A stretch of DNA of 39,898 nucleotides, taken from a virus (lineage: Duplodnaviria; Heunggongvirae; Uroviricota; Caudoviricetes). The notes beneath the pieces were generated by a model. The model was not told where the DNA came from. It worked only from the letters and a program-made list of their open reading frames with translations, and made no database searches. Below are positions 1,165 through 1,591 of the stretch, piece by piece; positions within the stretch are counted from its first letter, which is position 1; every line of letters starts with the position of its first letter. A program made the translations under genes and the position numbers. The stretch is taken from positions 1 through 39,898 of the IMG/VR virus record IMGVR_UViG_2698536471_000018; one strand, given 5' to 3'.

Positions 1165-1554
1165 CTACATCACCGGGCAGTCGTCGAACTCGCCAGAGCG
1201 AGCATCGTTGATGATGTAGGTGATCACCCCGAACACCGGACGCGATGTGTCTGATGCTTCATTCTTGTCAGGCAACCTCTCTCGCTTGCCATTACCCAGA
1301 TTCTCCAGGTGAGGCTCTGGGTGGATGCGATATCTTTTAATGCGGAACTCTCCTCCGTCAGCGCAAACCAGCAATGACCCATCACACGGGCTCAATGATG
1401 CGTCTACAACAAGCAAAGCACCCCTCAGGATACCTTCACGATAATGCGTCGCACCGGCACGCATGAAGTACGTAGCAGCTGGCCTGGTTATGATGCGCTG
1501 GTCTAATGATATGCGCTGCTCAACGTAGTCTTGCGCTGGACTCGGGAATCCCAT
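1165..1554 (-). CDS. UmuD'-like protein (S24 LexA/UmuD family C-terminal domain only; starts at the position equivalent to the UmuD cleavage product)
   Basis: Translation MGFPSPAQDYVEQRISLDQ...GEFRIKRY...VFGVITYI aligns with E. coli UmuD from Gly25 onward. The GDSM catalytic-Ser motif reads GATH; Lys of the dyad is retained. Start chosen at 1554 (GGAGG 4-5 nt upstream, LexA box further upstream) rather than the ORF-track ATG at 1608. Confidence 0.7.
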   Translation of the reverse strand: MGFPSPAQDYVEQRISLDQRIITRPAATYFMRAGATHYREGILRGALLVVDASLSPCDGSLLVCADGGEFRIKRYRIHPEPHLENLGNGKRERLPDKNEASDTSRPVFGVITYIINDARSGEFDDCPVM

Positions 1555-1571
1555 GATGCACCTCCGATAGT

Positions 1572-1591
1572 TACTGTATATACATACAGCA
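1572..1591. promoter_or_regulatory. LexA (SOS) box TACTGTATATACATACAGCA
   Basis: Matches CTGT-N8-ACAG consensus with AT-rich spacer; sits 18-37 nt upstream of the UmuD'-like start on the minus strand, positioned as the SOS box is upstream of umuD. Confidence 0.75.

Follow-up and report, generated by a model that had tools for sequence, protein, structure and literature searches.

An E. coli prophage that has integrated at argW/intS makes up the 39,898-nucleotide stretch of DNA analysed here, referred to below as the window; a prophage context had already been supposed in a reading made from the letters alone (the sequence-only reading). The order of genes is tRNA-Arg, intS (1..1158, + strand), a humD-type gene on the − strand, an Acyl_transf_3 O-antigen-type acyltransferase gene, and tail-fibre and baseplate genes. 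In related genomes tRNA-Arg (argW) and yfdC lie upstream of intS, i.e., host chromosome. The humD-type gene (1165..1554, −) encodes 129 amino acids followed by a stop codon (1165..1167); it is convergent with intS, at a gap of 6 nt, and its product is a UmuD′-sized protein predicted to have the S24 fold.

Some other features of the prophage may be recorded here. The acyltransferase gene (1863..3010, +) is interrupted. Compared with strain 54 (L003 7884..9011, 375 aa) there is a one-base gap around 2860..2880, and the resulting frame shift removes about 50 C-terminal residues; this represents either a pseudogene or a sequencing error. RNA features of the prophage in the regions 27009..27164 (−) and 37683..37741 (+) are tRNA-Thr(TGT), tRNA-Asn(GTT) and an element that matches the lambda CIII thermoregulator (RF01804) over its full length, at 88.5 bits.

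The product of the humD-type gene matches NF051876, the curated NCBIfam equivalog model ‘HumD family translesion DNA polymerase’, over positions 1-129 of 129 and scores 223.3 bits, well above the cut-off of 120. It does not reach the NCBIfam model for UmuD, NF007621 (82.7 bits vs. 110), and is far from that for LexA (18.1 bits vs. 110.95). Peptidase_S24 (PF00717) is the sole Pfam domain, at 27.5 bits against a gathering score of 23.3, and PHROG 811, ‘UmuD-like’, matches with an E-value of 1.6e-48. In MAFFT alignments the protein is 39% identical to E. coli UmuD, 69% identical to P1 HumD over all 129 aa, and 88% identical to HK140_028. The profile searches uphold the membership in the UmuD family that had been claimed from the sequence. 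On these matches the gene is an ordinary prophage-borne member of the HumD family, which is already known; the earlier reading is supported, but it rediscovers this family, whose identity it had missed.

Other assignments were rejected. The protein is not a LexA/CI-type repressor: it has no N-terminal DNA-binding domain, begins at the glycine of the cleavage site, and contains the S24 domain only. It is not the autoproteolytic Pol V subunit UmuD (NF007621), being below the cut-off for that model and without both the cleavable arm and the Ser60/Lys97 pair. An anti-repressor derived from the C-terminal domain of the prophage’s own CI, acting as a heterodimer, was rejected because there is no similarity between the two proteins (E 6.1).

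RefSeq already holds the exact protein (WP_000506736.1). In public records the identical protein is called ‘S24 family peptidase’, ‘LexA family transcriptional regulator’, ‘DNA polymerase V’ and ‘HumD family translesion DNA polymerase’. The first two of these names mislead, because there is no DNA-binding domain and no serine nucleophile. The protein has the S24 fold as judged by sequence and, since the nucleophile is absent, is probably not a peptidase. A search with PADLOC for a defence function gave no match. An AlphaFold2 model of the protein, based on a 54-sequence family alignment, had a mean pLDDT of 57.8, with values below 50 for the N-terminal arm and the C-terminal tail, and was set aside.

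The protein starts Met-Gly-Phe-Pro-Ser-Pro-Ala, that is, at the first residue after the Cys24/Gly25 cleavage site of UmuD. In HMMER searches of the PDB its residues 2-118 were aligned with residues 1-114 of UmuD′ (1UMU, E 9.6e-20); residues 25-136 of full-length UmuD (8GMT_B) were also aligned, residue 2 of the protein corresponding to UmuD residue 25. MAFFT places Met1-Gly2 on Cys24-Gly25 of E. coli UmuD. The earlier claim that the ORF begins right after the self-cleavage site is correct, and the truncation point is exact.

A further ATG in the same open frame, at 1608, would add 18 aa and give a total of 147. These extra residues arise simply from reading as codons the LexA box and the Shine-Dalgarno sequence described below. 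Met alone precedes Gly in 117 of 123 aligned sequences, these being 120 database homologues, the window protein, P1 HumD and UmuD. A small number of database entries are longer, but their added N-termini are unrelated read-through of the LexA box and represent mis-called starts; in P1, HK140 and Pocitis76 in-frame stops are found 2-7 codons upstream of the start. PGAP chooses the same start in strain 2013C-4974, where the product is WP_000506736.1. A start at ATG 1608 was rejected on the basis of the read-through extension, the Met-Gly start of the family, the mis-called longer entries and the upstream stops, and the start implied by the earlier reading, ATG 1554, stands.

A predicted LexA (SOS) box, TACTGTATATACATACAGCA, lies at 1572..1591 and agrees with the 20-base consensus TACTGTATATATATACAGTA at 18 of 20 positions (2 mismatches). 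It is the sole site in the window with three or fewer mismatches from this consensus, there being no matches in 100 shuffles, and it is also the sole CTGT-N8-ACAG in the 39.9 kb. The box ends 17 nt before ATG 1554 and its core starts 35 nt before it, a spacing that is conserved in five other phages. In genuine SOS genes the distance from the LexA box to the start is 15 bp for Salmonella umuD, 17 bp for yebG and 19 bp for dinI (PMC8072944), and the distance found for the predicted box is typical of these. The CTGT-N8-ACAG core is found 34–37 nt before the ATG in P1, where a LexA site is annotated, and in HK639, BTP1 and Pocitis76. A LexA site is also annotated in phiKO2, and one-base variants of the core occur in APC_JM3.2 and an Aeromonas phage. 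A Shine-Dalgarno sequence, GGAGG (1561..1565, −), was read directly from the sequence 6 nt before ATG 1554; an equivalent GGAGG or GAGG precedes the ATG in BTP1, APC_JM3.2, P1 and HK639. Both the near-consensus box and the ribosome-binding site had been noticed in the sequence-only reading.

Since humD is LexA-regulated (PMC9603915), control by LexA in vivo would be expected by homology for the window gene. A possible weak sigma-70 promoter (1589..1615, −), inferred by eye, consists of TTGATC (1615..1610), a 15-nt spacer and TAATGC (1594..1589). The latter, its −10 element, overlaps the LexA box, and BTP1 and APC_JM3.2 have TTGATC or TTGAAC at the corresponding position. A promoter consensus scan found none on the − strand.

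The replacement of the catalytic serine, described in the earlier reading as a change from GDSM to GATH, was confirmed. MAFFT aligns GDSM with GATH and puts Thr36 (codon 1447..1449, −) at the position of the UmuD nucleophile Ser60; HMMER puts a gap at this position, and there is no serine either way. The general base Lys97 is kept as K73 (codon 1336..1338, −) in both the HMMER and MAFFT alignments, the relevant lysine being identified by the K97A chain 8GMT_B. In the 120 nearest clusters, formed at 90% identity, the Ser60 position is most often occupied by Thr, GATHY alone accounting for 57; Ser is in the minority, and Lys97 is changed to Met in eight clusters.

A phmmer search against 1.84 billion 50%-identity representatives gave 2840 proteins at E ≤0.001, and the best 150 of these were divided according to their N-termini. 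Forty-seven were UmuD′-sized with an M-[GA]-F-P-S-P-A start; they had Ser at the Ser60 position in 8, Thr in 12, Lys at the Lys97 position in 20, and the C-terminal tail motif discussed below in 10. Among the 36 that possessed the N-terminal arm, Ser was found in 28 and Lys in 29, and the tail motif in none. These counts are rough, as the library contains many fragments and frameshifted products, but the contrast between the 47 and the 36 is clear. In two full-length phage UmuDs, those of PHB10 and ST846-OXA48phi9.2, GDSM, the lysine and the arm are all kept, and umuC directly follows the gene. Because the truncated orphans are mostly without the Ser/Lys pair and the arm-bearing UmuDs retain it, loss of the serine is, on these alignments, a trait of the family of pre-truncated orphans and not peculiar to the window gene. 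Such a loss is to be expected, as a pre-truncated protein no longer has to cut itself.

The C-terminus of the protein carries a feature that is absent from UmuD. The last 14 residues (aa 116-129; 1168..1209, −), NDARSGEFDDCPVM, form a conserved tail ending ...GEFDDCPVM-COOH; UmuD ends ...VVKAMR and has no counterpart. The tail and the N-terminal MGFPSPA are the best-conserved stretches of HumD proteins, and even in distant copies the tail is always at the very C-terminus. Variants are SCEWDDLPVI in an Aeromonas phage, MSEFDDNPCM in a Hafnia phage and GGEFDDTPF in representative P0139.

No umuC was found in the window, as had been stated before. Pfam searches of ten large window ORFs did not find a Y-family polymerase domain; all the domains found were those of structural proteins, of replication proteins (O, DnaB) or of a CI-type repressor. 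A tblastn search of the whole window with an approximate UmuC query gave a best E-value of only 0.92. In related genomes the flank beyond the window is likewise without an adjacent umuC, the genes upstream of intS being those named above. The host species, E. coli, has its own umuDC.

The HumD family was reportedly described by McLenigan et al. in 1999 (J Bacteriol 181:7005), first in phage P1. Like the window protein, P1 HumD (AAQ14073.1) has 129 aa, starts with Met-Gly-Phe-Pro-Ser-Pro-Ala at the position of UmuD Gly25, and has no umuC partner. Its gene has a LexA box approximately 19 nt before the ATG, and its product has the same C-terminal tail, INDARSGEFDDCPV. The two differ at the nucleophile position, where P1 HumD keeps the serine (ADSH). 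They also differ in location: in the plasmid prophage P1 the neighbours of humD are lxr and phd-doc, whereas the window gene, in a prophage integrated at argW, lies between intS and the O-antigen acyltransferase gene. P1 HumD has been characterized as a shorter, already-activated UmuD (PMC7092418). The P1 record carries the note ‘functionally complements E. coli UmuD′’.

HK140_028, HK639 gp28, phiKO2 Gp23 and N15 gp26 belong to the same family, have the same size as the window protein, and are each orphans. The UmuD-like genes of HK140 and HK639 are at the tail-fibre/attP/int junction. The HK140 protein has GATH, as does the window protein. In contrast to the window, phiKO2 and HK140 have a divergent dinI, and HK639 has Met at the Lys97 position. 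HK140 also differs from the window in having an extra 79-aa ORF that is translationally coupled to the UmuD-like gene from upstream, the LexA box lying before that ORF. This ORF, HK140_027 (L002 2762..3001), is conserved in Klebsiella phage RothD (L013 1762..2001) and ends ...NMGRVF/L; in both phages its stop overlaps the start of the UmuD′-like gene. The position of the box in HK140 suggests a two-gene SOS operon. The UmuD′-like gene of RothD (L013 2001..2318) encodes a 105-aa protein that keeps MGFPSPATDYVEQRLS at its N-terminus but is without the active-site region and the acidic tail; the next gene encodes a 348-aa hypothetical protein. The 105-aa product may be a further-reduced derivative of UmuD′.

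With E. coli UmuD and UmuD′ (1UMU, 1I4V, 8GMT) the window protein shares the S24 fold (by sequence, E 1e-19), the GFPSPAxDYVEQRI arm, the residues of the RecA pocket and, as predicted here, control by LexA. UmuD differs in its 24-aa N-terminal arm, RecA-aided cleavage, Ser60, an operon with umuC, and the lack of an acidic C-terminal tail. The UmuDs of phage PHB10, Klebsiella phage ST846-OXA48phi9.2 and plasmids (umuD/mucA-type) are also on mobile elements and have the same fold. These umuDC-type genes are often found at the tail-fibre/int junction, but unlike the window protein their products keep the arm, GDSM and Lys and have no tail, and umuC is immediately downstream.

The gene is widely distributed. 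A tblastn search of a phage collection found it in 99 records, which include P1, P7, SJ46, RCS47, HK140, HK639, phiKO2, BTP1, APC_JM3.2, Aeromonas pAEv1818 and Hafnia Pocitis76. In integrating phages it is located at the junction of tail-fibre (or O-antigen conversion) genes, attP and int. The exact window protein is on 872 public contigs, and the ORF is 100% identical in other genomes. Of 5426 complete E. coli genomes, 45 contain closely similar DNA, in some cases under the annotation ‘HumD family translesion DNA polymerase’. Of the 5000 best-scoring plasmid records, approximately 690 carry the gene at ≥60% identity.

Intact copies are under strong purifying selection, with dN/dS values of approximately 0.04–0.08 by the Nei-Gojobori method, dS being saturated. 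The copies in BTP1 (L007 2501..2873) and APC_JM3.2 (L008 2501..2884) have in-frame stops and are pseudogenes, which implies that the gene is dispensable for some phages. Many phages of the P22-like, lambdoid and Stx types retain, beside the integrase gene or attP, humD copies with in-frame stops or bare C-terminal fragments. Phages with such a fragment next to int include Stx phages, Sf101, mEp234, CurroJimenez, Louie and Dewey. The attP annotated in HK140 overlaps the gene at its 3′ end, and overlapping attachment-site DNA may be the reason for the survival of such fragments.

To become active, UmuD has to be cleaved between Cys24 and Gly25, which takes place on RecA filaments at a late stage of the SOS response (PMC9926225; PMC13076628). 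The window gene probably encodes a LexA-repressed mimic of UmuD′ that joins host UmuC without this processing and supports lesion bypass. In an undamaged lysogen, host LexA would occupy the predicted box and the gene would be off. [quoted passage not shown] Because translation starts at the residue that follows the UmuD cleavage site, the product would be made straight in the UmuD′ form. The slow RecA-dependent conversion of UmuD to UmuD′, which normally delays translesion synthesis, would thus be skipped. By analogy with P1 HumD, the product would form dimers and bind to host UmuC and to RecA filaments, and a Pol V-like lesion-bypass polymerase would be available earlier or more readily in the SOS response, with a predicted effect on mutagenesis or survival. 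As the product never needs to cleave itself, the Ser/Lys protease site would be free to decay, as with the change of Ser to Thr seen here.

Much of this model derives from P1. McLenigan et al. are said to have shown that P1 HumD forms dimers and binds UmuC and RecA filaments. Complementation was reportedly good only from a high-copy plasmid, native P1 HumD being poorly expressed, which makes even its role in P1 less certain. In favour of the model are the full-length match to the HumD model and the identity to P1 HumD, the unique LexA box at its conserved distance, the kept RecA-pocket residues listed in the next paragraph, the low dN/dS among intact copies, and the general loss of the Ser/Lys pair in truncated orphans. 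Several other findings speak against it. Between the window protein and P1 HumD 31% of positions differ, the Ser to Thr change included; the consensus scan gave no − strand promoter; the RecA-contact residue D91 of UmuD is Gly; the BTP1 and APC_JM3.2 copies are pseudogenes; and the conserved C-terminal tail, which has no counterpart in UmuD′, is not accounted for by a UmuD′ mimic.

The protein might instead act mainly by binding, either in the groove of the RecA filament or as a partner of host UmuD or UmuD′, with little or no lesion bypass. Cleavage of LexA, CI or UmuD would then be tuned, with effects on the timing of prophage induction or on the UmuD checkpoint. The residues that hold the L2 loop of RecA in UmuD are Y52, F94 and E93 (PMC9926225), and they are kept in the window protein as Y29, F70 and E69, which are invariant or nearly so in the HumD family; UmuD D91, another RecA-contact residue, is Gly in the window protein. 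The conserved pocket would suit such a binder or decoy, as would a dead protease site, which leaves binding functions alone. Furthermore, in phiKO2 and HK140 the gene is beside LexA-controlled dinI, which encodes another binder of RecA filaments, and the prophage’s own repressor is a RecA-dependent S24 protein. This function is nevertheless not favoured, and seems improbable, given the annotation of the P1 homologue as complementing UmuD′ and the lack of a detectable similarity to the prophage’s CI that would suggest a heterodimer. The N-terminal GFPSPAxDYVE arm is, in addition, conserved exactly as in UmuD′ proteins that have UmuC partners.

It is still less likely that the gene is a decaying passenger without present function at a variable integrase-proximal locus. 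The stops in BTP1 and APC_JM3.2, the C-terminal fragments that persist next to int in many phages, and the decayed catalytic site would fit such an origin. Against it are the intact ORF in the window and its identical copies in other genomes, the low dN/dS among intact copies, and the conservation of the LexA box, the Shine-Dalgarno sequence, the N-terminus and the C-terminal tail across distant phages. Translation from ATG 1608 into a 147-aa cleavable precursor resembling UmuD can be dismissed as extremely improbable: the frame is open and the extension ends in ...RRCIMG, which loosely recalls a Cys-Gly cleavage site, but the extension, made of translated LexA box and Shine-Dalgarno sequence, has no similarity to the UmuD arm and adds only 0.7 bits to the Pfam match, 117 of the 123 aligned sequences begin with Met-Gly, the longer entries being unrelated read-through, and P1, HK140 and Pocitis76 have stops upstream.

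If the protein is a UmuD′ mimic, the tail calls for separate comment. By sequence, its pattern recalls the acidic C-terminal tip of SSB, DFDDDIPF, which recruits at least 17 partner proteins (PMC10018359; PMC7913777; PMC5872125; PMC9565051). In a literature search no paper was found linking the HumD tail with the SSB tip. It is rather doubtful, on this resemblance, that the tail is a functional copy of the tip. If it were, HumD and UmuC could be directed by it, as a complex, to stalled forks or to the partners that bind SSB, or the tail could compete with SSB for these partners. HumD would then combine a dead protease with a recruitment peptide, and would not simply be a pre-cut UmuD′.

Genes of the HumD type are commonly carried by E. 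coli prophages at the integrase-proximal locus and are not confined to P1-like plasmid prophages. The idea that they free error-prone bypass in lysogens from the delay imposed by RecA is reportedly already in print in the 1999 work on HumD, and the points of possible further interest here are only the decay of the protease site across the family and the conserved acidic tail. Such genes could allow lysogens to begin error-prone bypass of lesions sooner than RecA-dependent processing normally permits, and earlier bypass bears on stress-induced mutagenesis and on the evolution of antibiotic resistance.
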